Below are positions 11,638 to 60,425 of a stretch of 64,000 bases of DNA, in pieces; the stretch's first letter is position 1; each line of letters begins with the position of its first letter. The stretch is from a bacterium (lineage in GTDB: Bacteria; SM23-81; DAOVCL01). The notes beneath the pieces are model-generated. The model worked only from the letters and a program-made list of their open reading frames with translations, ran no database searches and was not told the origin of the DNA. The DNA lies in the NCBI GenBank assembly GCA_029932675.1, contig JAOZPP010000001.1:24099-88098 (forward strand). Direction: 5' to 3'. The position numbers were made by a program, and so were the translations under genes.

Positions 11638-11848
11638 TTCTCCTCCTTCTCAGGGGGGTTAATCCACTCTATTCATAAATTGCCGCTGTTCACCCTCCAC
11701 CACCGTTGAGCCCTGTTTTTCGGCCTTGCCCGAAAGAGGCGGAGAACCATAAATAGCTAAAAAAGGTTAGGCCTATTGTTAATCAGTTTATGAATAATTG
11801 GGTTAATTACCAAGTCCATCCTCCCATTTACTCTCCCTGACCCTAATA

Positions 11849-33208: not shown

Positions 33209-33236
33209 ATCGAAAGTTCCAATACCATTAACTCAT

Positions 33237-33472: not shown

Positions 33473-33485
33473 CCCTGTTACACTA

Positions 33486-33725: not shown

Positions 33726-34045
33726 GTCCTCCTTCTCCGATAATCAATCCATAATTTAGGATTAGGATGATATACCGTAATGACGATTGTTAAATCTTCG
33801 TCTTTACCATATGCACATAGGATGTGCAATGGCCGGCTTTTGCGGGTCTTGCCAAACATCAAAACACTGGGATAGGGTTTATCCCTCGGGTATTCCCGAA
33901 TTACCTCCGCGCTACAGACCGCTTCGTAGACTTCGTTTTCTTTAATCTCACCAAACATCTCATTTCTCATCTCAACCCTTGCATGCTGAGTATAAAACAC
34001 ACGATTACTCTCAAAGCATCGCTGAATCTTCTTAACCCACTCCAT
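33722..34045 (-). CDS. DUF4258 domain protein (putative toxin partner of the YgiT zinc-finger protein)
   Basis: YTQHARVEMRNEMFGEIKENEVYEAV...PYPSVLMFGKTRKSRPLHILCAYGKDEDLTIVITVYHP matches the DUF4258 profile. Confidence 0.6.
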   Translation of the reverse strand: MEWVKKIQRCFESNRVFYTQHARVEMRNEMFGEIKENEVYEAVCSAEVIREYPRDKPYPSVLMFGKTRKSRPLHILCAYGKDEDLTIVITVYHPNPKLWIDYRRRRT

Positions 34046-34061
34046 TTCATTAACATTTATT

Positions 34062-34233
34062 TTGACAGGATGAACAGGATTTACTGGATTTTTGACTTCC
34101 TCAAGGCAACACCAAATGGCACCGAAACGACCGAAAAATTATCACGCACATCCTTCCTTAGAACTTATTGATATTCAGTTGCTTTCGGTGTTTAATGAAT
34201 ATTATCCTGTCAATCCCTGTCTATCCTGTCTGA
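34062..34233. repeat. second copy (C) of the MITE-like structured repeat
   Basis: A 32-nt stretch TTGACAGGATGAACAGGATTTACTGGATTTTT is identical to copy B. Right end ATCCTGTCAATCCCTGTCTATCCTGTC. Internal CACCGAAACG...CTTTCGGTG. Confidence 0.6.
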
Positions 34234-34242
34234 GTTTCCAAG

Positions 34243-35274: not shown

Positions 35275-35468
35275 GACGATTAACTCCTTAATCTCGTAGA
35301 TCGTGGATCGTTGCTCGTTGCTTGTTACTCGTAGGGATTTTAAGGTTTAGGTCTCTATGTCATTCGTCATCAGGGTTTTGGCATTAACTTGAGGCCCACA
35401 CCAAAGTGCGGTAGAAGTCCTCTACTCAAGGCAATCTGAAAACTGATCTCTGACCCTATTAACCGATT
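35275..35468. repeat. divergent/partial copy (D) of the intergenic repeat family containing a CGTNNNT heptamer array
   Basis: CGTAGAT CGTGGAT CGTTGCT CGTTGCT TGTTACT CGTAGGG at ~35295-35336. Shares CTCAAGG...CACC motifs with copies B and C but lacks clear TIRs. Confidence 0.4.
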
Positions 35469-39196: not shown

Positions 39197-39224
39197 ATCC
39201 TGACAATCCTGTTAATCCTGTCTA
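39197..39224. repeat. right-end fragment of the repeat family (ATCCTG x3) abutting a stop codon
   Basis: ATCCTGACAATCCTGTTAATCCTGTCTA. The TAG stop of 39222..40361 lies inside it. On the mRNA strand it reads UAGACAGGAUUAACAGGAUUGUCAGGAU. Confidence 0.45.
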
Positions 39225-42047: not shown

Positions 42048-42076
42048 TTGACCCCTAGTCGAGGATGTGTTATATT
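42048..42076 (+). promoter_or_regulatory. sigma-70-like promoter TTGACC-N17-TATATT embedded in 12-bp perfect palindrome GGTCAATTGACC
   Basis: -35 at ~42048-42053 and -10 at ~42071-42076. AAAGGGGG RBS and ATG at 42107. The palindrome is at ~42042-42053. Confidence 0.45.
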
Positions 42077-42106
42077 GGCTTGAACTTCTCAACCAAAGGG
42101 GGTCAA

Positions 42107-42916
42107 ATGAAGACTAACACACTCTTTGACAGAATGTCACCGAAGTCCCTGAGTGGCTTAATGGCCTCTCACTTTCAACACCAGTATAGGCTATCTCCTC
42201 AAGCAGCCAAGACTATCTGCCATGATGCAGTGTTATTTCGCAATCTCTTAGGTCAGCCAGCAAGGAGTGAGGGACAGATCCTCTATTATGCTGTCAAGCT
42301 GGGGGAGCCACCCAGCAAGCCCATTAAGGACTGTCAACTCCTCCCGGTGAAGCTGACTGTGTTTGACCCTGATGATCTTGACTACCGCAGAAGGTATGGT
42401 CAGAGGAGGCTGCTGGGATATATTATGATCCGCATCTGCCGGGAGGCCTATGAGCAGGGAGCAGTGTTGAGCATTGAGGATGTTGCCTCTATACTCCACA
42501 TCAGTGAAAGCACTGTGAAGCGGTATAAGAAGGCCTTAAGCCTTGCGGGTACTCCCCTGATCCTGCGGGGTGATACCGCTGATATGGGGCCGGGCACCTG
42601 CCATCGGGTTCCCATCGTTGAACTCTTCCTGCAGGGCTACTCAGAGACCGAGGTTGCCCAGAGGGTCAACCATAGCTTAGAGAGGGTGGAGGCCTATCTC
42701 TACGATTTTTTGCGGGTCTCCCTGCTGCTTGCCGATGGCTATAGCCCTGGTATGGCCTCCCGGATTGCCCATCTGTCCAAGGGCAAGGTCTCCTCTATCA
42801 GCCAACTGTATCACCGCTTGGCCCAGGATGCCTTCTACCAGGAGCCTCTGGCCAAGGTCTTGCAGCTCTACCAGTTGAGGCGGGACCTGAAAAAAGGAGG
42901 ATCTCCAGATGAGTGA
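42107..42916 (+). CDS. hypothetical protein with two predicted helix-turn-helix motifs (paralog A; DUF1670-like)
   Basis: HTH1 GAVLSIEDVASILHISESTVKRYKK. DMGPGTCHR box. HTH2 LQGYSETEVAQRVNHSLERVEAYLYDF. Paralogous to the next gene, with higher GC than the flanks. Confidence 0.6.
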   Translation: MKTNTLFDRMSPKSLSGLMASHFQHQYRLSPQAAKTICHDAVLFRNLLGQPARSEGQILYYAVKLGEPPSKPIKDCQLLPVKLTVFDPDDLDYRRRYGQRRLLGYIMIRICREAYEQGAVLSIEDVASILHISESTVKRYKKALSLAGTPLILRGDTADMGPGTCHRVPIVELFLQGYSETEVAQRVNHSLERVEAYLYDFLRVSLLLADGYSPGMASRIAHLSKGKVSSISQLYHRLAQDAFYQEPLAKVLQLYQLRRDLKKGGSPDE

Positions 42917-43709
42917 CCATTTCCCGCGGCGCCACTACAAGGCCGTCTATGGTCCCTTGGCTCAGAAGACATTGCACAACCTGCTGAAGCGAGAGCTTAT
43001 GGAGGAGTTTGGCTTTGAGAGTATGGGGTTGATTGCCGATGCCTTAATCAACCGCTTGCTGGAGCTGGTGGATACCTACACCCCTGAGCACTTCAGGCTC
43101 CTTCCTGGTCAGATGCTCTGGTTGGCTGTGGCCCGACAGGAGAAGGTGGGATATGGCAAGTCTATGTTGAGAAGCAAGTTAGTGCCAGTGATAGTCACAG
43201 TGATCAGTGCTGAGGACCTGGAAGCAATGGCAGAGGAGAGGGTTGACTTCAGAGAATTGAGACCCAAGGTAGTGGCTCGCATTCTTAAGGAGACTGATGC
43301 TCAAGGTGGGGTGCTGGCCTTAAGTGATGTGGGGATTATGCTGAGCATCAGTCCGGCAGCGGTCTCCTCTGCTGTCAAAGCCTACCAGGCAGAGCATCCA
43401 GGTGAGGTCTTGCCTTATCGAGGCACCTTGCATGATATGGGACCGACTATGACCCATAAGTTGCAGGCCATAGAATTGAAGCTCCAGGGATGCTTAACCC
43501 AGGAGATTGCCAGACGCATCCATCATGACCCTCAGAATGTGGACATCTACCAGACAGACTTTGAGAGGGTCTACCAGTTGTACCAGGATGGCAAAACCCC
43601 TCGCCAGATCAGCTTTCTGACCAAACTCTCCCTACATCTGGCAGAGGAATATATAGAGCTGATCAACAAGTATGTGGCTGAGGATGACTCATCGGTGTCA
43701 AAGAGCTAA
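42909..43709 (+). CDS. hypothetical protein with two predicted helix-turn-helix motifs (paralog B)
   Basis: GGVLALSDVGIMLSISPAAVSSAVK, DMGPTMTHK and LQGCLTQEIARRIHHDPQNVDIYQTDF align with paralog A. The start overlaps the upstream stop (ATGAGTGA), indicating translational coupling. Confidence 0.6.
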   Translation: MSDHFPRRHYKAVYGPLAQKTLHNLLKRELMEEFGFESMGLIADALINRLLELVDTYTPEHFRLLPGQMLWLAVARQEKVGYGKSMLRSKLVPVIVTVISAEDLEAMAEERVDFRELRPKVVARILKETDAQGGVLALSDVGIMLSISPAAVSSAVKAYQAEHPGEVLPYRGTLHDMGPTMTHKLQAIELKLQGCLTQEIARRIHHDPQNVDIYQTDFERVYQLYQDGKTPRQISFLTKLSLHLAEEYIELINKYVAEDDSSVSKS

Positions 43710-47482: not shown

Positions 47483-47895
47483 TAAGTAACCTCATTTTCA
47501 CCCAGAAATAGTCAAACCAGGTTAACGATAATATGACGAGGGATCTTAACAACCGGGGCAGGTTTAATGACCTACTAACTTCCTCCGAAAAAGCACCAAA
47601 GTTGTGAACTTTTTTAATGTCAAACAGATTTTCTATGACGGTAAGCATCTCCTCGCCCGTGCTGTTCTCGAATGAAGTATCTAACTCTTGGTTTTCTCCG
47701 CTAACACCGTGCAGCTTACTTCTTCTTAGCAAGTACTTGTAATAAGCAGCATTTAACATATTCTTTAAACTCTTCAGCCTCCTTGAGTAGGACCAGGTTA
47801 GCGGGAAACAAGCATTAACAACCCGAATTATTCATGAACTGAAAATGAATTGGCATAAATTTTTCAAGGCCAATGATTTGTGTATTTGTTTCGTA

Positions 47896-47991
47896 GGGAC
47901 AGACATTTATGTCCGTCCGCTTCCTCGAACTCCCTACAGCAAGAGACCTCAGCGATTTAAGAGGTGCTGTGAATTTATGAATAATCCGGGA
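47896..47991. repeat. left copy of a ~100-bp inverted repeat pair (partner at ~49867-49968)
   Basis: GGGACAG...CGCTTCCTCG...TCCCTACAGCAAGAGACCTCAGCGATTTAAGAGGTGCTGTGAATTTATGAATAATCCGGGA. Includes the last 5 codons and stop of the methyltransferase gene. Confidence 0.6.
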
Positions 47992-48424
47992 CAATAACTT
48001 CGAGGCTCTGACTTACTTTGGTTTTAAAGGTCCCTCCTTTTCCTCCCCAAATTCGCTCAGAAAAAAGGAACCATCCGCCCGGTTTTAATGAATGAAAAAT
48101 CTGCACACAAAGTCTCTCAATTTCCGGAATATGATGTAAAGCATCCCAAGCTGTAACCAGATCATATTTGTTTGGAGTTAACTCGTATTTATTCAAATCC
48201 GCCACAATCCAGTTGATTTTCCCTAGGGGTTTTTGCTTCAGTTGACTATGATATTTTTTAGCTACGTTGATTTCCCTTTCACTACAATCCACAGCATCGA
48301 CAATTTTCCCGGCCCATGCCATTTCTAAACTCAGCCACCCTGCACCGCGACCAAGATCAAGCGCTCTATCCCCGCGGCATCCCCTGGCAAACAGAGTCAA
48401 GGTTCTCCGAAATAAGCTCCTCAT
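47975..48424 (-). CDS. class I SAM-dependent methyltransferase
   Basis: Motif I ALDLGRGAGWLSLEMA. Start moved to ATG 48422-48424 (MRSLFRR) because the upstream in-frame extension to 48589 would overlap the ACP gene by 224 nt in another frame. Confidence 0.5.
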   Translation of the reverse strand: MRSLFRRTLTLFARGCRGDRALDLGRGAGWLSLEMAWAGKIVDAVDCSEREINVAKKYHSQLKQKPLGKINWIVADLNKYELTPNKYDLVTAWDALHHIPEIERLCVQIFHSLKPGGWFLFSERIWGGKGGTFKTKVSQSLEVIVPDYS

Positions 48425-48626
48425 CCTCAACCTGAATGCCAAATGTCTCCTCGACGAAGGAAACCAATTCGAGAACTCCAGTTGAATCGATGATCCCCTT
48501 TTCCAGAAAGGAATCATTGTTCTTAAGCTTATCTTGGTTGTGTCCAAACGGGAAATTATCAAAAATGAATTTTCTAATCTGTTCCTCAATGGACATCTCT
48601 GCTTCTCCTGCAGAAGGGTTCAACAT
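48366..48626 (-). CDS. acyl carrier protein-like
   Basis: 85 aa with GIIDSTGVLELVSFVEETFGIQVEDEE, an ACP-type phosphopantetheine-attachment helix (DSxG). Confidence 0.55.
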   Translation of the reverse strand: MLNPSAGEAEMSIEEQIRKFIFDNFPFGHNQDKLKNNDSFLEKGIIDSTGVLELVSFVEETFGIQVEDEELISENLDSVCQGMPRG

Positions 48627-48684: not shown

Positions 48685-49524
48685 TTAAGGAAAATTGGTA
48701 TTCCTAAGCACCTCCTCTACCGGGGCGAATTCAAAGTCCCGGAGAAGTTTCTTGATTTTAATCTCTGTCACATCTAAGTTGGTGTAAGTCCGGAACTTAC
48801 TCAAAAATTTAAGCTCAACCTTTGGGGGAGTGGGATCTATCTCCCAGGGGTGGAAATAGATAATGGCCGGTTTACCCTCTGAATTAATCTTCCTTATCCC
48901 CTTCTTCACGAACCAATATGGATAAATCCTCAAATAGCCTCCGCCAGCTATGGGCATATTTCTTCCCCACAGCCGATAGGTGGACAAGGGAAATTCGAAG
49001 AATCTCTTCCCACTCTCCAGCTTCACTCGATAAGGGAAGCGCGGAGCGGTGGGGACTCCATACCTATCGTGGAGGATAGGAAAGACGCTGGAGTCATATT
49101 CAAATCCCAATTCGCTTAGAATATCCCAAGCCCAAAAGGTATCAACTGTTATGGAAAAGCTTGGTGCTCTGTACCCCCTAACCTTCACTCCGGAGACCTT
49201 TTCAATCGCCTCCATTGCCCTGGTTACATCTTCTCTAAACTCCTCTTTGCTCTGTTTATAGATTAACCGATGGGCATATCCATGGGTGGCTATCTCATGC
49301 CCTTCCTCCTTTATCTTAAGGACCAGCTCTGGAAATCTTTCGGCAATCCAACCGAGAACGAAAAAGGTGGCTTTTGTCCTTTTAACATTCAACAATTTTA
49401 AGATGTGAAGGAGGTTAGCCTCCACCCTGCTCTCACACTTATCCCAGTTCTTATATCCTATAACCTCATCGAATTCAGAGGCCTGAAACCAGTCCTCCAC
49501 ATCTATGCTAAGGGCATTCTTCAT
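48685..49524 (-). CDS. polysaccharide deacetylase family protein (PEP-CTERM/exosortase-locus subfamily type with DUF3473-like C-terminus)
   Basis: LSIDVEDWFQ...ATFFVLGWIAERFPELVLKIKEEGHEIATHGYAHRL...GYRAPSFS. Confidence 0.7.
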   Translation of the reverse strand: MKNALSIDVEDWFQASEFDEVIGYKNWDKCESRVEANLLHILKLLNVKRTKATFFVLGWIAERFPELVLKIKEEGHEIATHGYAHRLIYKQSKEEFREDVTRAMEAIEKVSGVKVRGYRAPSFSITVDTFWAWDILSELGFEYDSSVFPILHDRYGVPTAPRFPYRVKLESGKRFFEFPLSTYRLWGRNMPIAGGGYLRIYPYWFVKKGIRKINSEGKPAIIYFHPWEIDPTPPKVELKFLSKFRTYTNLDVTEIKIKKLLRDFEFAPVEEVLRNTNFP

Positions 49525-49866
49525 AACCTATTTCCAATGAAGCCCACATACAATTAGAAACTTTCCCGGCGGGTAAAACCATCCATAAACCACAGATGAC
49601 CTCCCTTAACTAAAAACCCCCTGGGGAATGCGTTGAGGTTTCTCTCTAAACTATTTAACTGGGTGAACACAGACTTCCGCGGATAAAATCAACACTGCTC
49701 GTGGCTTGTTACACTACGCTAAATTTCCTTCCCAGTGCTTATAGCTTGAAGAATGAAGTGGTTCTTATTTCGTTTCATTCACCTCCCCAGTAGCCAGTGA
49801 CCCATAAAGGATGACCTGGGAAATATCAAATTTTCTACTTCTCTCAAGATCAAATCTGCAGATTTT

Positions 49867-49968
49867 ATCCCGGATTATTCACAAATTCACAGCACCTCTC
49901 AAATCGCTGAGGCCTCTTGCTGTAGGGACTCCGCCTTAGCGGAGCCCGAGGAAGCGAACAGACTGTCC
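49867..49968. repeat. right copy of the inverted repeat pair (about 90% identical to ~47896-47991 in opposite orientation, with a 17-nt insertion)
   Basis: TCCCGGATTATTCACAAATTCACAGCACCTCTCAAATCGCTGAGGCCTCTTGCTGTAGGGA... The plus strand reads ATC CCG GAT TAT TCA CAA (IPDYSQ), a pseudo-copy of the methyltransferase C-terminus VIVPDYS*. Confidence 0.6.
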
Positions 49969-50120
49969 CTCCAAGACATAATACCTTAAATTTAAAAGGA
50001 TTGTGCCATTTCGTTTCCAATTTGTGAACAATTGAGGTTAACGACTTTAAGGCAAAATATTCATAAACCACCGATGAGCACAAGTTTTCCCAGGCACAAT
50101 CGCAACCCCCCAAAAAAACA

Positions 50121-50155
50121 TCGTAGTTCGTTGATCGCAGCTCGTTACTTGTGAG
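50121..50155. repeat. CGTNNNT heptamer array (third locus)
   Basis: CGTAGTT CGTTGAT CGCAGCT CGTTACT TGTGAGG. Confidence 0.5.
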
Positions 50156-50497
50156 GGGCCTCGGAGGAGCTTACTATCGAAAACCTTTAACCACTTTAAA
50201 ATGCCTCTCCCACCAGGGGACGAAGGATTCTCGAACCAGGTATAATCCTCACCCTCTCCCTAGTCCTCCCCCATCAAGGGGGAGGAGACCTTCCTGAACG
50301 CCCACTCCTGTGAGCGAGGAGGTTCACTAAATTCAATTAAGTTGTCAAAAATCATAAGTGGGGGAGAGTTAGCCCCTCAAGCCTACCTGGAAAACCTTGC
50401 TCAAAAACAAGATCTTGCAAATTTTAGCACAAACAGCTAACTACATAGATGTTAACTCATCGTCTGCTCGCTTAGAACCTAAGGGGATAAGCAAGAT

Positions 50498-51232
50498 CTA
50501 TCTTGTCTGCAGATTCCCCTTCCCAGATCTTCTGGTCCCCGGTCGCGGTTTCTTATAATACTTGTAGCCGTAATACTTGTAGTCATAGTAATATGGAAGG
50601 ACCTTCTTCGCGTTGTTCAGCACCACCCCAATCAGGTTCACCCCCCCCTCCCTGAGGAGGTCCACTGCCCTCTTAGCCACCTCCCTCTGGGTCTTCCCCG
50701 CCTCTATTACCAAGAGGACCCCGTCCATCTCAGAGCTCAAGATCAATGGGTCACTCACCGGGATGACTGGAGCACAGTCAACGACTATGGTTTGAAAGTA
50801 AAATTTGAGCTCGGAGAATATCTCTTTTATTAGGTTAGAGTTGAAAAGCTCCACTGGGCTTCCGTCCAAGATCCCACTGGTGAGAACCTTCAGGTTCGGC
50901 AAGGGGGTGGATTTGAAACAGGTCTTCAAGGGAACCCCCTTAGTAAGAACTTCGGCTATTCCCCCCTCTCGTTCCAAACCAAAAAGGCTATGTTGAATCG
51001 GCCGGCGGAGGTCACAGTCCACCAAGAGAGTCTTGGTCTCCCTATATTTGGAAATGGCTATAGAGAGGAAAGCGGCCAGAGTACTCTTTCCTTCCCCCAC
51101 AGATGGGCTGGTGATCAAGAAATTCTTCATCTCCCCTTGGGAGGATAACCCCCTGATCCGGGAGTAAAGCCTCCGGAACTCCGTGGGACCGGGAGACTCC
51201 TCGTCGTAAAAAGAGAGTATGTTGTTGTTCAT
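50498..51232 (-). CDS. BY-kinase (CpsD/CapB-type tyrosine autokinase, P-loop ATPase) with C-terminal tyrosine cluster
   Basis: Walker A SPSVGEGKST, A' LLVDCDLRRP, B IVVDCAPV. C-terminal YYYDYKYYGYKYYKK. Confidence 0.75.
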   Translation of the reverse strand: MNNNILSFYDEESPGPTEFRRLYSRIRGLSSQGEMKNFLITSPSVGEGKSTLAAFLSIAISKYRETKTLLVDCDLRRPIQHSLFGLEREGGIAEVLTKGVPLKTCFKSTPLPNLKVLTSGILDGSPVELFNSNLIKEIFSELKFYFQTIVVDCAPVIPVSDPLILSSEMDGVLLVIEAGKTQREVAKRAVDLLREGGVNLIGVVLNNAKKVLPYYYDYKYYGYKYYKKPRPGTRRSGKGNLQTR

Positions 51233-51282
51233 TTTACCTCAATGCGATGTTAACGACCAATAGTCAATATACAATAATTAAT

Positions 51283-51339
51283 TAGCAATGATCAATTAGC
51301 AAGCTCAAATTAAGAATTGAGCAATGGTCAATTAACAAG
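51283..51339. promoter_or_regulatory. paired direct repeats TAGCAATGATCAATTAGCAAG / GAGCAATGGTCAATTAACAAG flanking an imperfect palindrome; candidate regulator binding site
   Basis: 18/21 identical copies spaced 36 bp, upstream of the BY-kinase gene. A related ATCAATTAGCAAG lies at ~52541-52553 upstream of the TPR gene. Confidence 0.35.
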
Positions 51340-51403: not shown

Positions 51404-52522
51404 CTATTTCATAAAGACCTTGAGGAGGAGGTGGAAACCCTTGCTGTCGTTTTCAGCGAGCTTTAGGTTCCTTTTCGCCTTTTCATAGTCTGGGTTTATC
51501 CTTAATGCCTGTCTGAAGTGGTGGATTGCCCGTTCGTTGATATACTTGCAGAGGACGGTATAGGCTATCCCTAAATCGTTATGGATATCCGCAAAGTGGG
51601 GATTCTTCTTAGCAAAATCCTCTAAGCTTTGAATGTACTGCCTCATCGTGGTATCATCTATCTCATCCTCCCTATGTAGAAACCGGAGATAGAAGTCCAG
51701 GGAGAGGGATTCAGCTTGCGAAATGCCCTCCTCGTCCCTGGCCTGATTAAACTCCTTCCAAGCCTCCTCCAATTGATCATTGAGGAGGTGCGCCTTTCCC
51801 CTCTCAAAACCCTCATTACGATAGCCAGGGTTCAATGTTGCCGCCTTTTCCATTGCTTCTAAGGCCTTCCTCTTCAGGTCTGTAGCCAGGGAGTAATCCT
51901 CCTTTACTATTCCATTGAGGATCAAGGCCAAGCTCAGGTTATAATATGCCTCTGCATAATAAGGATTGATCCCCACAGCTTTCTGAAAGCTGTCCGCAGC
52001 AAGCTTGCATTTTTGGGCCTTCAAATAGGCTGCCCCTAAGTTGTTATAGTAGTCCGCATAGTCAGGATCGATGCTTAAGGCCCTCTGAAAGGATAAGATG
52101 GCCTCTGCGGTTCTCTCTAAAGCCAGTTGAGCTTTACCTAAATTGTTGTATATTTTAGAGATGCTCGGATTTGCCCTTATGGCCTCCTGAAATTCGGCAA
52201 TCGCTTCCTCATACATTCCCTTTTCCAGGAAGGCTAAACCAACCCTGTTCTTCGCCTCCGCCTGATTAGAACCTGCAAGGCTCTCGGAAAGCTTAAGAAG
52301 GGATTCAGTCTCTTCCTTCTTCTCCTCATGAAGGGATTTAACCAAGGCTAAAAGAGATTCGTCAGATATCTGCGGATCATAGGAAATTTCATAAGATTTT
52401 ATTAAATTTCCTCCTTCGAAAAGGGAGCAAATTATCCTGTTTTGGAAGGCGTTATTTGATGTCTGAAGTAGATATTCTTTCCCTTTAGCCTTTATGGAAC
52501 TGCTAAAGCCAAAATTAGCCAT
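51404..52522 (-). CDS. TPR repeat protein (exopolysaccharide locus)
   Basis: Multiple TPR motifs (AIAEFQEAIRANPSISKIYNNLGKAQLAL...). Start taken at ATG 52520-52522 (MANFGF). The listed longer ORF begins at a TTG. Confidence 0.6.
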   Translation of the reverse strand: MANFGFSSSIKAKGKEYLLQTSNNAFQNRIICSLFEGGNLIKSYEISYDPQISDESLLALVKSLHEEKKEETESLLKLSESLAGSNQAEAKNRVGLAFLEKGMYEEAIAEFQEAIRANPSISKIYNNLGKAQLALERTAEAILSFQRALSIDPDYADYYNNLGAAYLKAQKCKLAADSFQKAVGINPYYAEAYYNLSLALILNGIVKEDYSLATDLKRKALEAMEKAATLNPGYRNEGFERGKAHLLNDQLEEAWKEFNQARDEEGISQAESLSLDFYLRFLHREDEIDDTTMRQYIQSLEDFAKKNPHFADIHNDLGIAYTVLCKYINERAIHHFRQALRINPDYEKAKRNLKLAENDSKGFHLLLKVFMK

Positions 52523-52577
52523 CTTCCTCCTCACAAACAAATCAATTAGCAAGTTAAAGTAAACCCCAAGTGAGCCA

Positions 52578-53717
52578 CTAATCGGTCATTGTTCCGCCGC
52601 CCAGGGAGGCAAATCTAATCCTCTTCTCCTTAGTATTCAACCCCCTTTCCCTTAACCGGCGGTATATTGTGGAAGCGCTGAGATTTATAAACCCATAAGC
52701 AGAGGTACTCAATTCCCTTTGAATCGATTTGGGGCCCAATTGAGGGTTCTGTTTTACTATCTTCACTATTTCGTTGAAATGGGTGGGACCCCTCCGCGAA
52801 GCTCCGAACCCTGCTTTGCGCCGAGCCTTAATAAGGGCAATTCTCTCCCTTTTCACCTTCTCCCACTCTTCCCTTAACTTCTCCCTCTCCCTCTCCAATA
52901 ACCTCCTCTCCTCATCTAACTTTGCCCTCTCCTCCTTCAGTTTAGCCCATTCATCCTTCTCTGCCCCAGGCTGAACAGCGGGGGTCCCCTTAGAAGGGGC
53001 GGAAACAGACCTTTCGGCAAGTTCCTGACGCAGGGATTTTACTACAAGATGAAGGCGACGCAAACCGACTTTGGTATGACCATATCTCGCAGACCTAAGC
53101 ACTTTCCTCACCTTCCAAACCCCATAGGTGGGATTCTCCTGCAATATCTCCTCTACCTTCTCCTCTATGGTAAGTTCCCTCTTCTCCGGAGGTGGCTCTC
53201 CTCTTGGAGGGAGTTTTTGTTCCTCCTCCATTAAGGGAGCGACCTCCTCTGATAACGATGGGGCCCTCTTCTCCAATGGCGGGGGCACAGCCTCCTCCAC
53301 CTCAGGCTCCTCTGGCTGAATCATTATGGTCTCTTTAACCGGGGATATGGGGATTCCCAATCGGCGAAGAAACCTTTTCTCGGCTTCCTCTACTGTATCA
53401 AATGATTGAATGAAATAATCAAGCTCCAAGAGTTGAAAGACCTCCTGTACTCCGGGTTGCATTGCTGCAAGCTTGATATCTCCTCCGCGACTGCGCACCT
53501 CCTTTATCTGCCCGGTAAATATACCCCATCCCGCACTGCTAATGTAATTCACCCCAGAGAGGTCCACAATTACGCGCCATAGTCCCTTCTCTATGATGGT
53601 GGTCAAAGCCTTCTCCAAGTCATCAGCCGATTCGGCATCGAGCACCCCTCTCACCTCAACTATACATATCCTCCCCTCAGGAGGACCTACTGCCCTTATA
53701 GATATCTCAGCGCTCAT
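52578..53717 (-). CDS. STAS-domain (anti-sigma-factor-antagonist-like) protein fused to a Pro/Glu-rich coiled-coil region and two C-terminal HTH-like repeats
   Basis: N-terminal IVEVRGVLDAESADDLEKALTTIIEKGLWRVIVDLSGVNYISSAGWGIF is SpoIIAA-like. C-terminal repeats ENPTYGVWKVRKVLRSARYGHTKVGLRRL and QNPQLGPKSIQRELSTSAYGFINLSASTIYRRL. Confidence 0.5.
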   Translation of the reverse strand: MSAEISIRAVGPPEGRICIVEVRGVLDAESADDLEKALTTIIEKGLWRVIVDLSGVNYISSAGWGIFTGQIKEVRSRGGDIKLAAMQPGVQEVFQLLELDYFIQSFDTVEEAEKRFLRRLGIPISPVKETIMIQPEEPEVEEAVPPPLEKRAPSLSEEVAPLMEEEQKLPPRGEPPPEKRELTIEEKVEEILQENPTYGVWKVRKVLRSARYGHTKVGLRRLHLVVKSLRQELAERSVSAPSKGTPAVQPGAEKDEWAKLKEERAKLDEERRLLEREREKLREEWEKVKRERIALIKARRKAGFGASRRGPTHFNEIVKIVKQNPQLGPKSIQRELSTSAYGFINLSASTIYRRLRERGLNTKEKRIRFASLGGGTMTD

Positions 53718-55285
53718 TAACCCCTTCCTTGGAAAAAGGTGAGGTAGAAAAAGATGGAAAGAAGAACTAAGATAAAGAAAACCTTTAACCCAATGAATCT
53801 CTCCCTTTGCCTTAGCCTATGGGGGATCCCCATCCAGGGAATCGTTCCCAGGACAGGAAGTCCCAATAGAGCCTCCACTTCTTCAACTTTTTTAAAAGAG
53901 TGGTCCATATATTCGGTCAAAAACACCAAGCCAAAACCGGTCATAGAGCCGAGGATAAAACCTAAGAGGAGGAGTTTCCTGCGATCTGGTTTCACTGGTT
54001 TAAGGGGTTTGGTCGCCGGCTCCAGTATTTTGAACCTGTATTCTGCCTCTGCTCTTTTCAGGGATTCCTCGATCTGAGAGCCCTGCGATTGCTCTAAGAA
54101 CATATTGTAAAGCCTTCTGTTGGCCTCAACTTCATCCTGAAGCCTGGAAAGGGCCAGCTCCTGGGCAGGGCCTTTGGTCAAGCTCTTTGTATATTCACCA
54201 ATGAAATTTAAGAGGTTCTCCCTCTTTCTCTTCAAAAACTCCATACTTTCCTTGGTTATCTCAGCCTCAGCCAAGTTAGAGGAGGAGGTTTCCTTCCTGA
54301 TTAGTTGTTCAATTCTTCCCCGGATATCGGCAACAAGTTGGTTCAGCTTCACCACCTTTGCATCAGTCCAGGAATACCTCCCCAATAGCCCTGGTAGCTG
54401 GTCTATTGCCTTCCTTAGCTCATCTTTCAACCTGAGAAGTTGGGGAGAGGAATGGTGATTAAGGAGAGAAAGCTCCTGAGGGGTAAGCTTTGATTTGAGA
54501 AAATTTAGGTGATCCTCCGCCTCCTTTAACTCCATCTCGGTAGAGGAAATCATTGAATTTATCTGAGCTAAATTGGCGGAGGTAATGGAATAGTCCTGAA
54601 TTTGGCTTTTTAGCATCTTCTCCTTAAATTTGCGCAGTTTTTCCTCTGACTCCTTCAGTTTGGCTTGATAGATCTCCAACTGCTCTTTGCTGAAGTTCAA
54701 GGCCTCCCGGATTCCTCCCAGTTCGCCCTTCAGAGTCTCTTGAATAAAGATCTCGCTTAAGGTCTTCGCCACCTTATAGGCCCCCTCGGGAGTTGAGCTT
54801 CGTGCCTTTATCTTCAGGATGCCCTCCTGCTCAGAGTGAACATCAATTTTTCTCCGTAAAGAGTTAATTAACCAGGTCTCCATAATTTGATCTACCGTAA
54901 GGTCAGGGTAATTAGGCTTGGCCTTCATCGCTTTCTCCCTAAGAAGAGGATTATTCATTAAGCCTAATTTAACTATCAATTTACTCATATACTCCCGACA
55001 GGTGACTCTCCTCTTTAAGGCGTTGATCCACCATTGATACTCCCTACTTCCCGGCCTTTGGTCAGAACGGGAGCCAGGAACCATCCTCTGGACGGAGGAA
55101 CTTAGGAAATTTGTCCCCCCAACCATAATGGTAGTGGAGGACTCATAAACTGGAGATATCTTATAACTTCCCAAAAATACGGTAAGGAGGATAACCACTA
55201 AGGGCAAGAGGAAGAGATGTTTCCTCCGTAAAAAAATCTGCCAATACTCTCTAATATCTACTTTAATTCCCTGTTCCAACTGCAT
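53717..55285 (-). CDS. polysaccharide chain-length determinant protein (Wzz/GumC/EpsF-like co-polymerase)
   Basis: N-terminal TM after IDIREYWQIFLRRKHLFLLPLVVILLTVFLG. Long periplasmic coiled-coil. C-terminal TM. Overlaps the next gene by 1 nt. Confidence 0.7.
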   Translation of the reverse strand: MQLEQGIKVDIREYWQIFLRRKHLFLLPLVVILLTVFLGSYKISPVYESSTTIMVGGTNFLSSSVQRMVPGSRSDQRPGSREYQWWINALKRRVTCREYMSKLIVKLGLMNNPLLREKAMKAKPNYPDLTVDQIMETWLINSLRRKIDVHSEQEGILKIKARSSTPEGAYKVAKTLSEIFIQETLKGELGGIREALNFSKEQLEIYQAKLKESEEKLRKFKEKMLKSQIQDYSITSANLAQINSMISSTEMELKEAEDHLNFLKSKLTPQELSLLNHHSSPQLLRLKDELRKAIDQLPGLLGRYSWTDAKVVKLNQLVADIRGRIEQLIRKETSSSNLAEAEITKESMEFLKRKRENLLNFIGEYTKSLTKGPAQELALSRLQDEVEANRRLYNMFLEQSQGSQIEESLKRAEAEYRFKILEPATKPLKPVKPDRRKLLLLGFILGSMTGFGLVFLTEYMDHSFKKVEEVEALLGLPVLGTIPWMGIPHRLRQRERFIGLKVFFILVLLSIFFYLTFFQGRG

Positions 55286-55360: not shown

Positions 55361-56305
55361 TCACCGGGAGGAGAGCCTATCCACCAGGAGGTAGATTCCA
55401 CTAAGCGTGCCCAAAATTCCAATTACATCCCTGGTTGTTCCCCAAAATCCCCTCCAAAACGTGGACTTACGGGGGACGAAAACCGTGTCTCCAGGCCTTA
55501 GAAGAAAAGGAGAAGGGACCCCGGAAGGTGATTCTTCCAAGTTAACCTTTGCCACCCGGGAATAGGGGAGCCCCTGGCTCACTACCGTCACCTCACTCAG
55601 CTTGGCCTCAGGTGTGGGACCTCCAGCCATCACGATGGCCGCCAGAAGGCTCATATTCTTCTCAATGGTATAGGCTCCAGGGCGGCTGACCTCACCATAG
55701 AGATAAACCCTTTTGCCTCCCAGCTCAGTCGATCCCCCTCCGGTTGATATTCCCGGTATATAGACTGTATCCCCTGATTTGAGGGAAGGGAGAAGGGAGG
55801 GGTCCCCTGTCTCCAGAAATTTGGTCAAGTCCACCAGAATTGGCCTCTGCCCTTGGCCTCTGATGATGGTTACCCCACTCAAGATAGCGGTCTCCGTGGG
55901 ACCTCCAGCCTCAAGGATAGCCTGCCAGAGGTTGGGGAGTGCCTCAAATGTATACTTGCCTGGGGTGAGAACCTGCCCAGTAAGATATATCTTCTTACTT
56001 CCATATTGGGTAACAACCACAGTGGCCTGGGTAATCCCCTTGTTGTAGATAGAGATTTTTTCCACTATCTTCTTGCCCAATTGAGTAGGGGTGAGGCCGG
56101 CCGCGGTTACTGAACCTATTATGGGTAGGGTTATCTTACCATCCCGCCCTACCCTGACCTGAGCGTTCAGATCGGGCTGCTGCCAAAACTGAATGGAGAG
56201 GACGTCATCTTGACCAATCACATACTCCCCAGCAACCAGGGAGAGCGACCAGAGAAGAAGAACGAATAAGACGATTCCCCATTTTATATATCGGCAATCC
56301 ATCAT
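55361..56305 (-). CDS. polysaccharide export protein (Wza/EpsE-like, Poly_export + SLBB domains)
   Basis: Signal peptide, then YVIGQDDVLSIQFWQQPDLNAQVRVGRDGKITLPIIGSVTAAGLTPTQL. Duplicated SLBB-like GDTVYIPG/GDTVFVPR. Confidence 0.75.
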   Translation of the reverse strand: MMDCRYIKWGIVLFVLLLWSLSLVAGEYVIGQDDVLSIQFWQQPDLNAQVRVGRDGKITLPIIGSVTAAGLTPTQLGKKIVEKISIYNKGITQATVVVTQYGSKKIYLTGQVLTPGKYTFEALPNLWQAILEAGGPTETAILSGVTIIRGQGQRPILVDLTKFLETGDPSLLPSLKSGDTVYIPGISTGGGSTELGGKRVYLYGEVSRPGAYTIEKNMSLLAAIVMAGGPTPEAKLSEVTVVSQGLPYSRVAKVNLEESPSGVPSPFLLRPGDTVFVPRKSTFWRGFWGTTRDVIGILGTLSGIYLLVDRLSSR

Positions 56306-57120
56306 TACTCCTTTAGTCTATTTTGAATAAAACATACTGGAAAAAAATGAAATTGGCAAGGGAAAAAGCCACGGAAAATACTTCGGCGGTTTAAACCGTT
56401 CAATAATAGGCAAAAAGTAACCACTATGCGGGAATAGAATTGGCTAACCCCAAAGAAACCCCAAGAAAGAACTTGGTTCACTACAAGTCCTCCCTATAGC
56501 GGCTATCACCCCTCTGGTCTACAATAATCCCCCTCATCCCTTGAGGGGGTCATAACTTCTGTAAACAACCCTTTGCTTTGGGCATTTCTGAGAAGCTCCA
56601 AAAGGTTCTATAAAAGCTGCTCAGGAGCGGATCAGGGCAAAATGGGCATAATAAGATATAAGCAAAATCTGTGCCAAGGAAGGGGAACAAGTAAGTAATT
56701 CGGGGTTTCTCCTTCTATCCCCAAATTCTCCCCCCTTGGAGAGACTAATTTACCCTCCTTTGCCATAGAGTGTTTTCCTTTTATCTCCGCATTTTGCAAA
56801 GGGCTGCAAAGTTTATGCAAATACCTTCAACGAGAAGAGAAATTCCTCTTGATTTTCCCTCCCCCACTGCTTATTTTATAACCATCTCTACTACCTCAGT
56901 GGAACTGCTTACCTAACCCGGATTGTTCATAAGCACCTCACGGATGGATCTCAAGAGCTGTTCCTACAGCAAAAATATTAAGAAATTTGGGACTCGATGC
57001 TAATTTCTGAATAAATCGGGAAAGGGAAATCCGCAACCGGGCAGGAGCGGTTAGGTAAAAACTTTTAGCGTCAAGGCTTTCATATAGGGAAACATCTGCT
57101 AACCCTTGAGGATATCGATT

Positions 57121-58365
57121 ATGAAGGACCTCACCGGTCAACTTGAGCTGACAAACAAGAAACTGAAGAGGAGGCTTTACGATCTATATACCCTCTTCGA
57201 GCTTAGTCAACACCTTAACTCTGTACTGGAGCTTGATCCCCTCCTTGACTCCATCCTCCTGATCTGCCTAGGCCAAATGGGGGTAGGGGGGGCAGTTCTT
57301 TTTCTCACCCAAAGGGGGACGTTGAAGGTAGCCAAAGCCAAGGGGATGAAATCCCAAGATCTTCAGGGAAAGGAGATCGGGCTTCACAGCACCTTGGGAC
57401 AGTTCCTCTCTAAGGCCAACCGAGCCATCCTTTTTGGTGATTTAGAGAAAATAGCGGGGGCTGAGGAGGAGGTAAAAAGGCTAGACAGCTTAGAGTGCGA
57501 GGTGTGCATCCCCCTTAATATAAAGGGAAGGTTAAAGGGAATTTTAACCCTTACCCCGAAGATCTCTGGTGCTCCTTTTACAAGTAACGACTTAGAGTTT
57601 CTCACCACATTGGCCAATCAATTGGGGGTAGCCATCGAGAACGCTGAACTTTATGAGAGTGTAAAATTAACCAACCTCGAACTGAGGAGAACGCAGCAAC
57701 AGTTGATCCATAGCGAAAATTTAGCTACCGTAGGGAGACTGGCAGCTACTCTCGCTCATGAGATAAACAATCCCCTTGGGATAATAAAGAACTACCTCAC
57801 CCTTCTCAGCAAAAAGGGGAACCATAATTCAGAGACCATAGAGGTAGTAAAAGAGGAAGTGGAAAGAATTGGCAAAATCGTGGGACAGCTCCTCGACCTC
57901 TCCCGGCCGATGTCAGAACCAAGAAGCCCTATCGACTTAAATCAATTGATCAGGGAAACCTCCTCGGTCCTAAGAGAACAACTCCTCCGAGATGGAATCA
58001 CCTTAGAAGAGAACCTTTCCCCCATCTCATTAGTAAATGCCTCTCCTGGCCAATTAAAACAGGTCTTCCTCAACCTGATTGCCAATGCTAAAGAAGCAAT
58101 GCCTCGGGGTGGGAAGTTAGTGATAAATACCAAAATGGAAGATAACTTTGTGGAGATAAGTTTCTCAGATACCGGAGAGGGTATTAAGGAGGGGGAGATA
58201 AAACGGCTTTTTCAACCATTCTATACCACTAAAAAGGATGGTATGGGGTTAGGTCTCTCCATCTGTGAGGAGATAATTCGCAACCATAGAGGTGAGATAT
58301 TGGTCAAGAGGGGTAAAGAAAAAGGAAGTATCTTCACCGTTAGGTTGCCGGAGGTTGGTAAGTAA
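57121..58365 (+). CDS. GAF-domain sensor histidine kinase
   Basis: GAF N-terminus. H-box ATLAHEINNPLGII. HATPase_c N/G boxes (NLIANAKEAM, DTGEGI, GMGLGLSI). ATG at 57121. The listed 57106 start is a TTG. Confidence 0.8.
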   Translation: MKDLTGQLELTNKKLKRRLYDLYTLFELSQHLNSVLELDPLLDSILLICLGQMGVGGAVLFLTQRGTLKVAKAKGMKSQDLQGKEIGLHSTLGQFLSKANRAILFGDLEKIAGAEEEVKRLDSLECEVCIPLNIKGRLKGILTLTPKISGAPFTSNDLEFLTTLANQLGVAIENAELYESVKLTNLELRRTQQQLIHSENLATVGRLAATLAHEINNPLGIIKNYLTLLSKKGNHNSETIEVVKEEVERIGKIVGQLLDLSRPMSEPRSPIDLNQLIRETSSVLREQLLRDGITLEENLSPISLVNASPGQLKQVFLNLIANAKEAMPRGGKLVINTKMEDNFVEISFSDTGEGIKEGEIKRLFQPFYTTKKDGMGLGLSICEEIIRNHRGEILVKRGKEKGSIFTVRLPEVGK

Positions 58366-60425
58366 TGGGAGGTAGGATTCTTGTTGTAGACGACGAGGAA
58401 AGGATGTGCGAAAGCATGCGCGCCCTCCTCTCTCAAGAGGGATATGAGGTAGATACAGCCTTAGATGGAATTGAAGCCATCAAGAAGGCTCAAAAAGGAA
58501 GATTCGACATGGTAATTACCGACCTGAGGATGTCCCCGATAGATGGGATCAAAGTATTGGAGGGCGTAAAGGAAGCATCTCCTCAGACACTTATAGTCAT
58601 CCTCACCGCTTATGCCACCCTGGATTCAGCCATAGAAGCCATAGGCAAAGGGGCTTATGATTACCTGATGAAACCGGTGGAATTCCCAGATTTGAAGAAA
58701 ACGGTGGAGCGGGGGATGGAGAAGTTAGAATGGGAGCGAAGGCAGAGAGAGCTCATGATAGAACTCCGGGAGAAGAATATCCTCTTGGAACAGAGGCTAC
58801 GGGAATTAGACGCTGTCTATGAGGCTTCGACTTCTCTTATCTCCGTGCTCAAGCTCGATGATAGCTTAGAGAGGATTGTGAACTTAGCTGCGGATGTCTT
58901 AGGGGCTAAATTAGGTTCTTTAATGATCTTAGATGAGAAAGGAAAGTATTTAACTATAAAGGCAGCAAAAGGGCTGGAAGAAGATATCATTAGGCAGACA
59001 AGACAAAAGGTTGAGGGAAGCATCTCTGGTTGGGTAGCCCAGAAGGGAGAACCTCTGCTTGTGGAGGATATCGAATTAGACCCCCGCTTCCGAAGATTGA
59101 ACCGACAAAAGTACGAGACCAAATCTCTTCTCAGCGTTCCCCTAAAGATCAAGGGAAAGATTTTAGGGGTGTTGAATATGAACAACAAATCATCGGGAGA
59201 CCCTTTTAACAAATCTGACCTCCGCCTTCTTTCTACCTTCGCCTCTCAAGCCGCTTTGGCCATTGAGAACGCTGCCCTCTTCGAGGAGAGCCGAAAGAGG
59301 ATTAAGGAACTCTCTGTCCTCTATAGGATTGCCAGTAACCTCCCATCTTCTGAAAACCGGGAGTCTATGATCCTTATGGTCTGTCAGGGTTTAATGGAGA
59401 TAATGAATGTAGAGAACTGTTATTGGTTCCAGGGTGAGGGCAAAGAGTTCAATCTCGTTTACACTTGCCAGGAAGGGAAACCCACCTCCTTCCCCCCCCT
59501 TAAGCTAAAAATTGAAGAAGACCTTAGCTCAGAAAACCTTTCCCAAAGGGTGCACGCCTTCTTGGTCGCTAATGGCCTGCTCTCTTCCCAGGCTAAGGGA
59601 ACCCTCTCAGTCCCCCTGATGATTAGAGGAAAACTGAGGGGCATCTTCTCCCTATCAGCTCCAGAGGAACTCTCCGAGCGGGAGAAGAAGCTAACGTCAA
59701 TCTTAGTCTCCCAGGCCACTTCCCTCTACGAGACCCAAAGCGCCATCCTCTCAGCCGGCCAACTGATGATTATGGGCCAACTTGTTTCAGAGATCAGCCA
59801 TGACCTTAAACAACCATTGACCAGTATGCGTGGAACCCTCCAGATGCTCAAACAAAAGTGGGACAAACTGCCCTCGAAGGAGGAATATCTGAACAACTTG
59901 GAAAAGGATATAATGACGCTCTCTGATTTGGTCAGGGAATTACTTCGCTTCTCCAATCCTCAGTCATATGCTCGCCAACCAAAACAGATTACCGTGATAA
60001 TTGATCGGGCCTTGGAGCTAGTGGGAAGTGAGTTAGAGGCAAATGATATCAGGGTAGAGATCACTTCCCCCTCCCCACTACCCTCGCTTCTCTTAAACGA
60101 AAACGAGATCCTCCAGGCAATAATCAACATCATCTTCAATTCGATCCAGGCCATGCCATCTGGGGGGAGACTGGGGATAAAGGTCCAAGAGGTGAAGAAA
60201 AAGGGAAGAAATTTCCTAAAAGTTGAAATTTCCGATACCGGGGTAGGTATACCGGCCGAGAACTTAAGTCACATATTTGACCGTTACTTCACCACCAAAG
60301 AAGGAGGGACTGGTCTAGGCCTCTCTATCGTCAAAAGAATCATTACCGCTCATCAAGGAGAAATGGAGGTAAAAAGCACCCTTGGGAAGGGGACAACTTT
60401 TAACATCTATCTACCCATATTATGA
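58365..60425 (+). CDS. hybrid response-regulator receiver / tandem GAF / histidine kinase protein
   Basis: REC ILVVDDEERM...MVITDLRMSPIDG. Two GAF-like regions. HisKA/HATPase_c (EISHDLKQPL, DTGVGI, GTGLGLSI). Overlaps neighbours by 1 and 4 nt. Confidence 0.75.
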   Translation: MGGRILVVDDEERMCESMRALLSQEGYEVDTALDGIEAIKKAQKGRFDMVITDLRMSPIDGIKVLEGVKEASPQTLIVILTAYATLDSAIEAIGKGAYDYLMKPVEFPDLKKTVERGMEKLEWERRQRELMIELREKNILLEQRLRELDAVYEASTSLISVLKLDDSLERIVNLAADVLGAKLGSLMILDEKGKYLTIKAAKGLEEDIIRQTRQKVEGSISGWVAQKGEPLLVEDIELDPRFRRLNRQKYETKSLLSVPLKIKGKILGVLNMNNKSSGDPFNKSDLRLLSTFASQAALAIENAALFEESRKRIKELSVLYRIASNLPSSENRESMILMVCQGLMEIMNVENCYWFQGEGKEFNLVYTCQEGKPTSFPPLKLKIEEDLSSENLSQRVHAFLVANGLLSSQAKGTLSVPLMIRGKLRGIFSLSAPEELSEREKKLTSILVSQATSLYETQSAILSAGQLMIMGQLVSEISHDLKQPLTSMRGTLQMLKQKWDKLPSKEEYLNNLEKDIMTLSDLVRELLRFSNPQSYARQPKQITVIIDRALELVGSELEANDIRVEITSPSPLPSLLLNENEILQAIINIIFNSIQAMPSGGRLGIKVQEVKKKGRNFLKVEISDTGVGIPAENLSHIFDRYFTTKEGGTGLGLSIVKRIITAHQGEMEVKSTLGKGTTFNIYLPIL

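Follow-up and report, generated by a model that had tools for sequence, protein, structure and literature searches.

Background

Miniature inverted-repeat transposable elements (MITEs) form long RNA stem-loops, can carry promoters, are co-transcribed with their surroundings and can alter mRNA stability (PMC3184786). Three described families, ERIC/IRU, Correia and Chunjie, are the closest counterparts of a repeat element that we report here from positions 49525 to 50497 of a 64,000-nucleotide window (the whole stretch of DNA that was analyzed), which holds a large XrtA/PEP-CTERM exopolysaccharide (EPS) locus of a Zixibacteria-like genome. This interval is a 973-bp non-coding spacer between a tyrosine-autokinase-like gene and a polysaccharide deacetylase gene, and the element within it is most probably a MITE of the ERIC/Correia/Chunjie kind, i.e., a new family and not a new kind of system. 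We hold with moderate confidence that the gap is an internal spacer of the EPS operon which grew by insertion of this MITE and duplication of a short module, and we propose that the element would serve as a determinant of mRNA processing or stability.

The ERIC/IRU elements of Enterobacteriaceae are MITEs of ~127 bp. Like them, our element is an imperfect palindrome that ends in inverted repeats and has AT-rich (TA) flanks; it further resembles them in its position in intergenic, often intra-operonic and (here putatively) transcribed DNA, in its predicted long RNA stem-loop and in its unusual conservation across species (PMC3184786). ERIC/IRU elements have been proposed to modulate mRNA cleavage and stability (PMC3184786). 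The element described here has no sequence similarity to ERIC/IRU, measures 170-185 nt, contains three internal hairpins instead of one long stem, comes from a Zixibacteria-like phylum and is known from sequence only.

Correia elements (CREE/NEMIS) of Neisseria, 104-157 bp long, share with ours the terminal inverted repeats, size variants that arise by internal deletion and outward-facing promoter-like sequences at the ends (PMC3184786), as well as a location upstream of genes or within operons and an RNA hairpin that is a potential RNase III substrate (PMC3184786). Unlike Correia, the present element does not carry the promoter motif in all copies, shows no consistent TA duplication, has no sequence similarity to that family and appears to be low in copy number (4 copies in the ~82 kb examined). 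The Chunjie elements of Geobacter uraniireducens (178-235 bp) come close in size, in their terminal inverted repeats of ~20 bp and in their very stable predicted RNA fold (PMC3184786); they too are inserted in an operon without breaking it, and some copies overlap protein genes, as one copy does here at the stop codon of a methyltransferase gene (PMC3184786). However, the Chunjie copies are recent and nearly identical, with 9-bp direct repeats, whereas the copies of our element are old and diverged and their flanks suggest a TTAA-like duplication of 4 bp at most.

A dispersed element with terminal inverted repeats

Two arms in opposite orientation, 47916-47999 and 49860-49943, are 86% complementary over 84 nt, far beyond chance, and gapped alignment extends their similarity to ~175 nt. 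They belong to copies of an element of ~170-185 nt with three internal hairpins and terminal inverted repeats of 17-19 bp (CCCGnATTATTCAYRAA and its complement), the latter present in all full-length copies, diverged ones included. The copies measured span 104-184 nt, and similarity among them ends sharply, at (TTAA)CCCG on one side and at CCGGG on the other. A covariance model (R1) built from six copies recovered all six at 140-233 bits and added two diverged copies in the window, 11655-11807 and 56913-57020, which keep the terminal repeats and not the interior. The spacer, the copies in the window and the ends of the copy within the spacer are listed below.

49525..50497, no strand: non-coding spacer, 973 bp between the tyrosine-autokinase-like and deacetylase genes, from the list of open reading frames (ORFs)
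49869..50041, minus strand: element copy W-right, the right inverted-repeat arm (R1, 189.7 bits); starts with TTAACC and ends with CCGGG
50019..50037, minus strand: 5' terminal inverted repeat of W-right, CCTCAATTGTTCACAAATT; pairs with 49869-49887 and shares 15/19 positions with the 3' end in reverse complement
49869..49887, minus strand: 3' terminal inverted repeat of W-right, AATTTGTGAATAATCCGGG; similarity among all copies stops right after its CCGGG
47818..47990, plus strand: element copy W-left, the left arm (R1, 204.3 bits); without hairpin H2, and with ACAA on both flanks
11655..11807, minus strand: diverged element copy in the ribBA-ribH spacer (28.6 bits); terminal repeats kept, interior replaced
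56913..57020, plus strand: short decayed element copy (104-nt) upstream of a PrsK-like histidine kinase gene

W-left is antisense to its flanking genes and supplies the methyltransferase ORF 47975-48589 with its last codons and stop codon. Genome and metagenome collections were searched with a 22-base core pattern and then with a looser pattern. Among public genomes, the core was found only in the Candidatus Zixiibacteriota metagenome-assembled genome (MAG) JAOZNS01, as two copies at contig ends, and a stretch identical to the window was found in Logan contigs of run SRR21545388. The metagenome scan yielded one real locus, contig L004, in which two direct copies surround an AbiEi/AbiEii pair, and one chance coding match (L005), while viral contigs, plasmids and phages gave no element matches. 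One further copy, in the same orientation as in the window, lies in the corresponding locus of a sister lineage (L006; R1, 199.8 bits). Moreover, contigs were broken inside the element by three different assemblers, and a Logan contig (L001) ends 30 nt within its 3' end; such breaks are the behavior expected of a multi-copy repeat. As the element breaks metagenome assemblies at predictable points, it is also useful for finishing MAGs.

The copy in the rib operon is missing from three relatives (L018, L021 and L022, with RibH 81-85% identical), which provides a filled/empty comparison at a single site. Flanks are AT-rich and TTAA-like, with a perfect ACAA/ACAA at W-left, three of four positions matching at W-right (TTAA/ATAA) and in L006 (TTAA/GTAA), and TTAA/(A)TTAA, offset by one base, at 11655-11807. 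We identify the element as a probable MITE because it is short (MITEs generally stay below ~200-400 bp) and non-coding, has terminal repeats and sharp ends, and occurs as dispersed copies with one filled/empty site (following PMC3184786). It would be the first MITE-like family for a candidate phylum without cultured members. The original prediction, made from the letters of the window, had listed a recombination scar among its readings of this region; the inverted repeat proved to be no local scar, as its arms are two of at least four dispersed MITE-like copies that also occur in other genomes and contexts.

Other assignments were considered and rejected. Integron attC sites have RYYYAAC and GTTRRRY core sites ending an imperfect palindrome, and integron cassettes are flanked by them in one orientation; our element ends in (TTAA)CCCG...CGGG without GTTRRRY, the window copies are mutually inverted and no integrase was found. 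An IS200/IS605-type end, an omega-RNA and a bridge-RNA were set aside given the true terminal inverted repeats and the lack of an associated recombinase or TnpB gene and of a conserved target. The methyltransferases beside W-left and beside the copy in contig L003 are only 28% identical, and we rejected the view that they are orthologs sharing one insertion.

Two observations touch on other copies and sites. In L004, the two copies (204-399 and 2139-2334) remain similar to each other for ~35 nt past the element's 3' boundary, which points to duplication of a larger unit or to mobilization by paired MITEs. The ribBA-ribH spacer of one relative (L017) carries another repeat (5009-5417), a ~125-nt unit in tandem duplicate with inverted ends TTGTCATTCC...GGGAATGACAA; different small repeats have therefore landed in this spacer repeatedly.

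Origin of the long spacer

The original prediction had described a gene-free region between the deacetylase gene and the export/kinase operon, laden with an inverted repeat, a heptamer array, a GC-rich hairpin and a poly-C/poly-A tract. The region is indeed non-coding, 973 bp long and bounded as described, and all of these features are present where they had been placed. It is composed of one copy of the element, a duplicated regulatory-looking module and unconserved filler, in which the GC hairpin and the homopolymer run happen to lie.

For comparison we used a sister lineage represented by three independent assemblies of the locus (L006, L007 and L008). Its deacetylase is 84% identical, its TPR, kinase-like and deacetylase genes come in the same order and its spacer measures 747 nt. 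At four-fold degenerate sites of the two flanking genes, window and sister are 44-52% identical, and the two spacers align globally at ~40%, no better than shuffled sequence; all they have in common is the element, in the same orientation, and a module of ~70 nt. In distant relatives (deacetylase 57-59% identical), the upstream gene, be it the kinase-like one or another operon gene, ends 14-30 nt before the deacetylase gene; these relatives include another Zixibacteria group, in which the upstream gene is the kinase-like one. Given these short junctions, the long spacer is derived: an operon junction that had been tight has expanded in this lineage. A lineage-specific spacer of this type is an ordinary feature of bacterial genomes, found here in a poorly known phylum. 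Synteny with the sister ends after the deacetylase gene; from there on, the sister continues with a gene of 82 aa and one for an AMP-binding enzyme, the window with the methyltransferase gene, W-left and an ATP-grasp gene.

In the shared module, a heptamer array is joined by three ATCTGYG repeats at 10-bp spacing and by a TATTTT sequence that resembles a -10 box. Its sequence runs from a short heptamer array (AACGAA[A/C]TACGATG) through the ATCTGYG repeats to TCATCTG..TTATGAnTATTTTG..TTAA. The window holds two copies, a first one upstream of the element (50152-50047) and a second one downstream of it (49712-49575), while in L006 the module lies ~45 nt downstream. The parts of the two copies are as follows.

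50120..50152, plus strand: heptamer array of five TCGYNNN units in the plus-strand reading
50047..50101, minus strand: box A, with three ATCTGYG-like repeats phased at 10 bp and then TCATCGGTGGTTTATGAATATTTTGCCTTAA; 5 nt separate its end from the element
49664..49712, minus strand: 5' half of the second module copy (A'), a heptamer patch and TGATTTTATCCGCGGAAGTCTGTGTTCA; score 31, above all 200 shuffles
49600..49663, minus strand: probable 64-nt insertion splitting A', from comparing A, A' and the L006 box
49575..49599, minus strand: 3' half of A' (TCATCTGTGGTTTATGGATGGTTTT), from pattern comparison

The local alignment of box A with the L006 box (3558-3612) scores 34, above all 200 shuffles, and in L006 a collinear mini heptamer array (AACGAAATACGATG) precedes the equivalent box. 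Because it is conserved in the sister lineage, box A is a better candidate for an internal promoter or operator than the element's own promoter match. As for the heptamer array, the three-unit TCGYNNN pattern has 15 matches in the window where 0.18 are expected, far beyond chance, and 13 of these lie in three intergenic arrays (33326-33378, 35294-35332 and 50121-50152); the array that had been noticed is thus real, non-random and intergenic. The idea of a regulatory hub survives in part: a regulatory-looking module, conserved in the sister lineage and duplicated here, is present. What appeared to be a 1-kb hub is mainly a mobile-repeat insertion plus a local duplication in an operon, to be annotated as containing no gene and no known RNA. 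The near-invariant 60-nt core of the element and the phased short-repeat module are testable candidates for control of the EPS tailoring genes.

The filler contains two features that had been singled out from the sequence.

50263..50285, no strand: perfect 9-bp GC-rich hairpin, TCCTCCCCC-ATCAA-GGGGGAGGA, exact
50103..50118, plus strand: C6A7 tract, CAACCCCCCAAAAAAA, between the heptamer array and box A

Both had been read exactly, and neither goes beyond chance. The folding energy of the hairpin, which sits in a purine/pyrimidine-rich context, is ordinary compared with shuffles (z = -0.5 on the minus strand and -1.7 on the plus strand), so that it does not stand as a significant structure; nor is it a canonical intrinsic terminator, since no U/T run follows it on either strand, and a terminator scan found none inside the gap. 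The C6A7 tract interrupts a conserved junction and is absent from the equivalent junction of L006. On the minus strand, the hairpin and the purine-rich segment that follows resemble the whalefall-1 motif (RF01762), including that motif's conserved 3' AGGGUGAGGA segment, at 20.5 bits against a gathering score of 37. As the match falls below the threshold, consists of low-complexity purine/pyrimidine sequence and is unmatched in the sister spacer (L006 has a loosely similar C/U-rich plus G/A-rich hairpin and no whalefall-1 match), we do not count it as a member of that family.

Predicted fold of the element

The internal features of W-right are listed here, together with a promoter-like match that overlaps them.

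49889..49923, minus strand: hairpin H3, ACAGC..GCCUC[AGCGAUUUGA]GAGGU GCUGU, the block that is conserved best across the family
49926..49947, minus strand: hairpin H2, GGGCUCCGC-UAAG-GCGGAGUCC; loop-closing pair AU, CG or UG depending on the copy
49955..49972, minus strand: remnant of H1, partly deleted in W-right, from the alignment of copies
49874..49902, minus strand: sigma-70-like match TTGAGA-17-AATAAT (10/12), in the 3' part of the element and directed outward towards the deacetylase gene

W-left and W-right fold alike: their ends pair into a long closing stem, and the hairpins lie within it. The minimum free energy (MFE) of the W-right RNA is -67.5 kcal/mol (z = -4.2), and z-scores of the sense strands range from -2.0 to -5.5. 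In an alignment of seven sequences, 96.4% of the helix cells of a 45-pair structure (closing stem, H1, H2 and H3) are paired, as against 38-47% in slid controls. Two H1 pairs covary among the full copies (CG to GC and AU to GC), and together with the loop-closing pair of H2 they make up the three pairs that have changed on both sides. G.U variants occur at 12 pair positions and A.C variants at 3; G.U works on the sense strand only, and A.C would become G.U on the opposite one. In the 3' core, all variation lies in loops or creates wobbles, and over its final 62 nt the element is the same in the window and L006 except at 2 positions, set against the 44-52% identity of four-fold degenerate sites given above. 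Of nine copies, seven run in the same direction as the neighboring genes. The helix-preserving changes are suggestive of selection on the fold of a single strand, a proposal also made for ERIC-type elements.

An alternative pairing of the 5' domain (UGGCAUAAAU) with the H1 loop or the 3' strand, predicted in L006, was dropped, as it is not compensated in the L004a copy. No Rfam family matches at its gathering threshold anywhere in the window; a permissive scan of the gap returned only the sub-threshold whalefall-1 match and a chance match to a snoRNA, and the sister spacer gave chance matches only. A tRNA/tmRNA scan was negative as well. The Rfam search that had been suggested as a check thus gave no known RNA family.

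Proposed role and alternative explanations

We propose that the element spread by transposition, probably with a transposase encoded elsewhere, that it would land in AT-rich, TTAA-like intergenic sites and that it would be tolerated mostly in the sense orientation of the surrounding operons. In the EPS operon, it would be transcribed within the operon mRNA, by read-through from a sigma-54 promoter at 56661-56676 or from box A, which may act as an internal promoter or operator. The transcribed element would adopt a stable fold, a four-way junction of about -67 kcal/mol, and may act as a determinant of mRNA processing or stability, as with ERIC and Correia elements, possibly uncoupling the tailoring genes (deacetylase and methyltransferase) from the export genes.

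Several points weigh against this proposal. Transcription and processing of the element, and promoter activity of the element or box A, are deduced from sequence. Target-site duplications are inconsistent, being absent from both L004 copies and from the 56.9-kb copy, and no autonomous insertion sequence with matching terminal repeats was seen in 25 loci and viral contigs, a search that did not extend to the genome and metagenome collections. Copies within the genome have diverged (86% in the core and far less in the 5' half), so the family has not been recently active here. Since the module sits at different positions in the two lineages (downstream in L006; upstream in the window, with a second copy downstream), ancestral and independent insertion of the element are hard to tell apart. 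The near-invariance of the last 62 nt would be better explained by functional constraint or recent exchange than by neutral decay. With regard to the fold, antisense z-scores are similar to those of the sense strand, and the 4-9 kcal/mol by which the sense strand is ahead in MFE, in 4 of 5 copies, amount to a weak strand preference; the covariation comes from seven related sequences, the same ones from which the structure was derived.

A first alternative is that the element is a structured noncoding RNA family of ~180 nt with a four-way junction, either a small RNA or a cis-acting one, for which the MITE-like spread would be secondary and the conservation would stem from RNA function. We regard this as unlikely, despite helices held by wobble and compensatory changes (12 G.U against 3 A.C positions and three double-change pairs), a 3' core that varies only in loops and wobbles and ends in 62 nucleotides that hardly vary between genomes with near-saturated synonymous sites, and a sense bias seen both in MFE (4/5 copies) and in orientation (7/9). 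The copies lack a conserved upstream promoter and a downstream terminator, and variable AT-rich sequence follows their 3' ends; two of them are antisense to every neighboring gene; diverged copies keep the terminal repeats and lose the internal hairpins; and antisense z-scores are on a par with sense z-scores. Moreover, seven sequences carry the argument, one of the covariation controls is of a type that related sequences are known to pass even without any structure, and the contexts (EPS, riboflavin, AbiE toxin-antitoxin and a sigma-54 activator) are unrelated. A combined view, in which the element is a new RNA class of a Zixibacteria lineage that has a selected fold (closing stem and H1-H3), spread as MITEs do and is now a cis-acting module in operon transcripts, among them those of EPS, riboflavin, toxin-antitoxin and sigma-54 regulator genes, is tentative and on balance doubtful. 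Were it true, the element might determine how stable individual mRNA segments are or serve as the binding site of a dedicated protein, and with the adjacent heptamer/decamer module it might form an internal control point for the EPS tailoring genes; and if the constraint at the RNA level is real, this would be a further instance in which a mobile element was recruited to serve as a structural module of RNA.

A reading of the element as a mobile promoter, with TTGAGA-17-AATAAT firing outward to the deacetylase and methyltransferase genes, draws on Correia elements, which carry functional outward promoters (PMC3184786). The match, 10/12 in W-right and 9/12 in W-left, sits in the most conserved block of the element, and L006 has the same site along with a hybrid match that joins a -35 in the element to a -10 in the flank. 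We nonetheless find this improbable: 3 of the 7 copies have damaged hexamers or spacing (CTGAGA in L006, AATAGT in L004 and a 4-nt insertion that lengthens the spacer in L002) through changes that leave the fold intact, and the W-left and L003 copies would fire antisense into a convergent gene. In addition, this is a consensus match, the sigma-70 consensus may not be that of this phylum, and the locus has sigma-54 promoters and a PrsR-like activator. A sigma-54 promoter inside the element was rejected, as the candidate sites, in the 5' domain, read TGGCAC-N5-TTTT or TGGCAT-N5-TTTC and lack the -12 GC. Still less probable is that the inverted copies 47818-47990 and 49869-50041 are a recombination device or scar, by which the deacetylase-methyltransferase cassette would be inverted or moved as a composite transposon, or that each element acts as a promoter switch by inversion. 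The element does recall Bacteroides invertons in its inverted ends, its promoter-like site and its EPS context. The inverted copies bracket exactly two genes, sister synteny stops just past the deacetylase gene and the two L004 copies bracket the AbiE pair. Paired MITEs, such as IMU, can mobilize the DNA between them (PMC3184786). However, arms that are 86% identical with indels make a poor substrate for homologous inversion, the other copies are solitary, and a test for invertons found a single orientation in the window, L001, L006, L007 and L008 and, in those ORFs of the window that were screened, no gene for a recombinase or invertase.

A last alternative is that the spacer encodes a small protein, through its longest ORF or through the open frame shared by copies of the element.

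49865..50113, minus strand: spurious ORF of 82 aa, running through the repeat element

This ORF had been taken for the only one and for a spurious product of the repeat; spurious it is, and by way of the repeat, but it is the longest rather than the only one, as four ORFs of 40-53 aa also overlap the gap. Its frame is open in four copies of the element, which speaks for a protein, yet the start codon is not conserved, the differences among these copies are nearly all amino-acid-changing and, in some copies, an antisense frame likewise runs along the element without a stop. A profile built from the four translated copies found no homolog among 5.8 billion predicted proteins, and gene callers predicted no gene at this spacer in L006 or L007. 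ORFs carried by MITEs are a known artefact (PMC3184786), and we find a small protein hardly credible here.

Setting of the locus and further repeats

Gene identities in the window were taken from Pfam and NCBIfam matches. The EPS locus includes an exosortase (21746-22582), an EpsI-like DUF3485 protein, many glycosyltransferases, Wzy, a flippase and FemAB-like proteins. On the minus strand, the operon runs in the order export, chain-length determinant, STAS-HTH, TPR, tyrosine-autokinase-like, spacer, deacetylase and methyltransferase.

55361-56305, minus strand: export protein gene, export operon
53717-55285, minus strand: chain-length determinant gene, export operon
51404-52552, minus strand: TPR protein gene, export operon
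50498-51232, minus strand: tyrosine-autokinase-like P-loop gene (Pfam/NCBIfam), bordering the spacer
48685-49524, minus strand: XrtA-type polysaccharide deacetylase gene (TIGR03006, 375.7 bits), bordering the spacer
47975-48589, minus strand: methyltransferase ORF, beyond the deacetylase gene

Genes for a PrsK-like kinase, a hybrid kinase and a PrsR-like sigma-54 activator (57106-61810, with the activator at 60422-61810) are transcribed divergently from the export operon. The sigma-54 consensus TGGCAC-N5-TTGC (GG-N10-GC) is matched perfectly at two intergenic sites on the minus strand, 56661-56676, ~355 nt upstream of the EPS export gene, and 25692-25707, ~37 nt upstream of a gene for 570 aa (23943-25655). 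Both would fit regulation by the PrsK/PrsR-like two-component system encoded at 57106-61810.

The STAS-HTH protein of the operon (52578-53717, minus strand) has 379 aa, with an N-terminal STAS (anti-sigma antagonist) domain, two HTH regions and no catalytic domain. Its HTH regions resemble transposase DNA-binding domains (HTH_21 and HTH_32/Tc3; IS3/IS481/Tc3-type). It is kept in the sister operon at 61% identity; full-length relatives are rare, while proteins with STAS and one HTH (~240 aa) form a wide family. The protein is a possible regulator of the locus. That it might be a domesticated transposase domain binding the ends of the element was not adopted as a reading, as no specific link was found and the combination of STAS and one HTH is that of a broad family. 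A pair of DUF1670 genes (42065-43709, plus strand), one with an HTH_23 match, lies on the strand opposite to the EPS genes and has a GC content of 0.50-0.53 against ~0.40 around it, possibly an inserted island within the EPS locus. The 171-nt spacer between the TPR and kinase-like genes contains a 14-nt tandem repeat, CAATAATCAATTAG, in 3.2 copies (51258-51302).

Short repeats are found at other sites of the window as well. A second gene-free EPS spacer of ~1 kb (33209-34242) holds a 67-nt direct repeat (33236-33302 and 34061-34127; 87% identical) and arrays of heptamers and nonamers; long repeat-laden spacers are thus general in this EPS locus and not special to 49525-50497. The TCGYNNN arrays have 5-8 units in one orientation and lie upstream of minus-strand EPS genes (DegT-like aminotransferase, FemAB-like and deacetylase); they may be binding sites for a regulator of the locus. 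More 10-bp-phased ATCTGYG repeats occur at 21738-21764, between the exosortase and EpsI-like genes and on the strand opposite to these genes. Nonamers ATCCTGTNN, usually in three units, are intergenic across the EPS locus on either strand, with 13 matches where 0.6 are expected; in the sister lineage they lie ~45-70 nt upstream of the start codon of the deacetylase gene.

21669-21693, 31925-31949, 33240-33264, 33454-33469, 34065-34089, 34214-34229 and 39197-39221, and 3668-3696 of L006: nonamer arrays

ACCTNNN heptamers, in up to ~10 units, are found at 15955-15987, 22634-22658 and 23044-23388. Most of these units surround a gene of the 23S-rRNA-IVP family (22652-23071) and reach into the neighboring ORF with a FlgD-Ig domain, while the array at 15955-15987 lies inside the 3' end of ORF 15920-18991.

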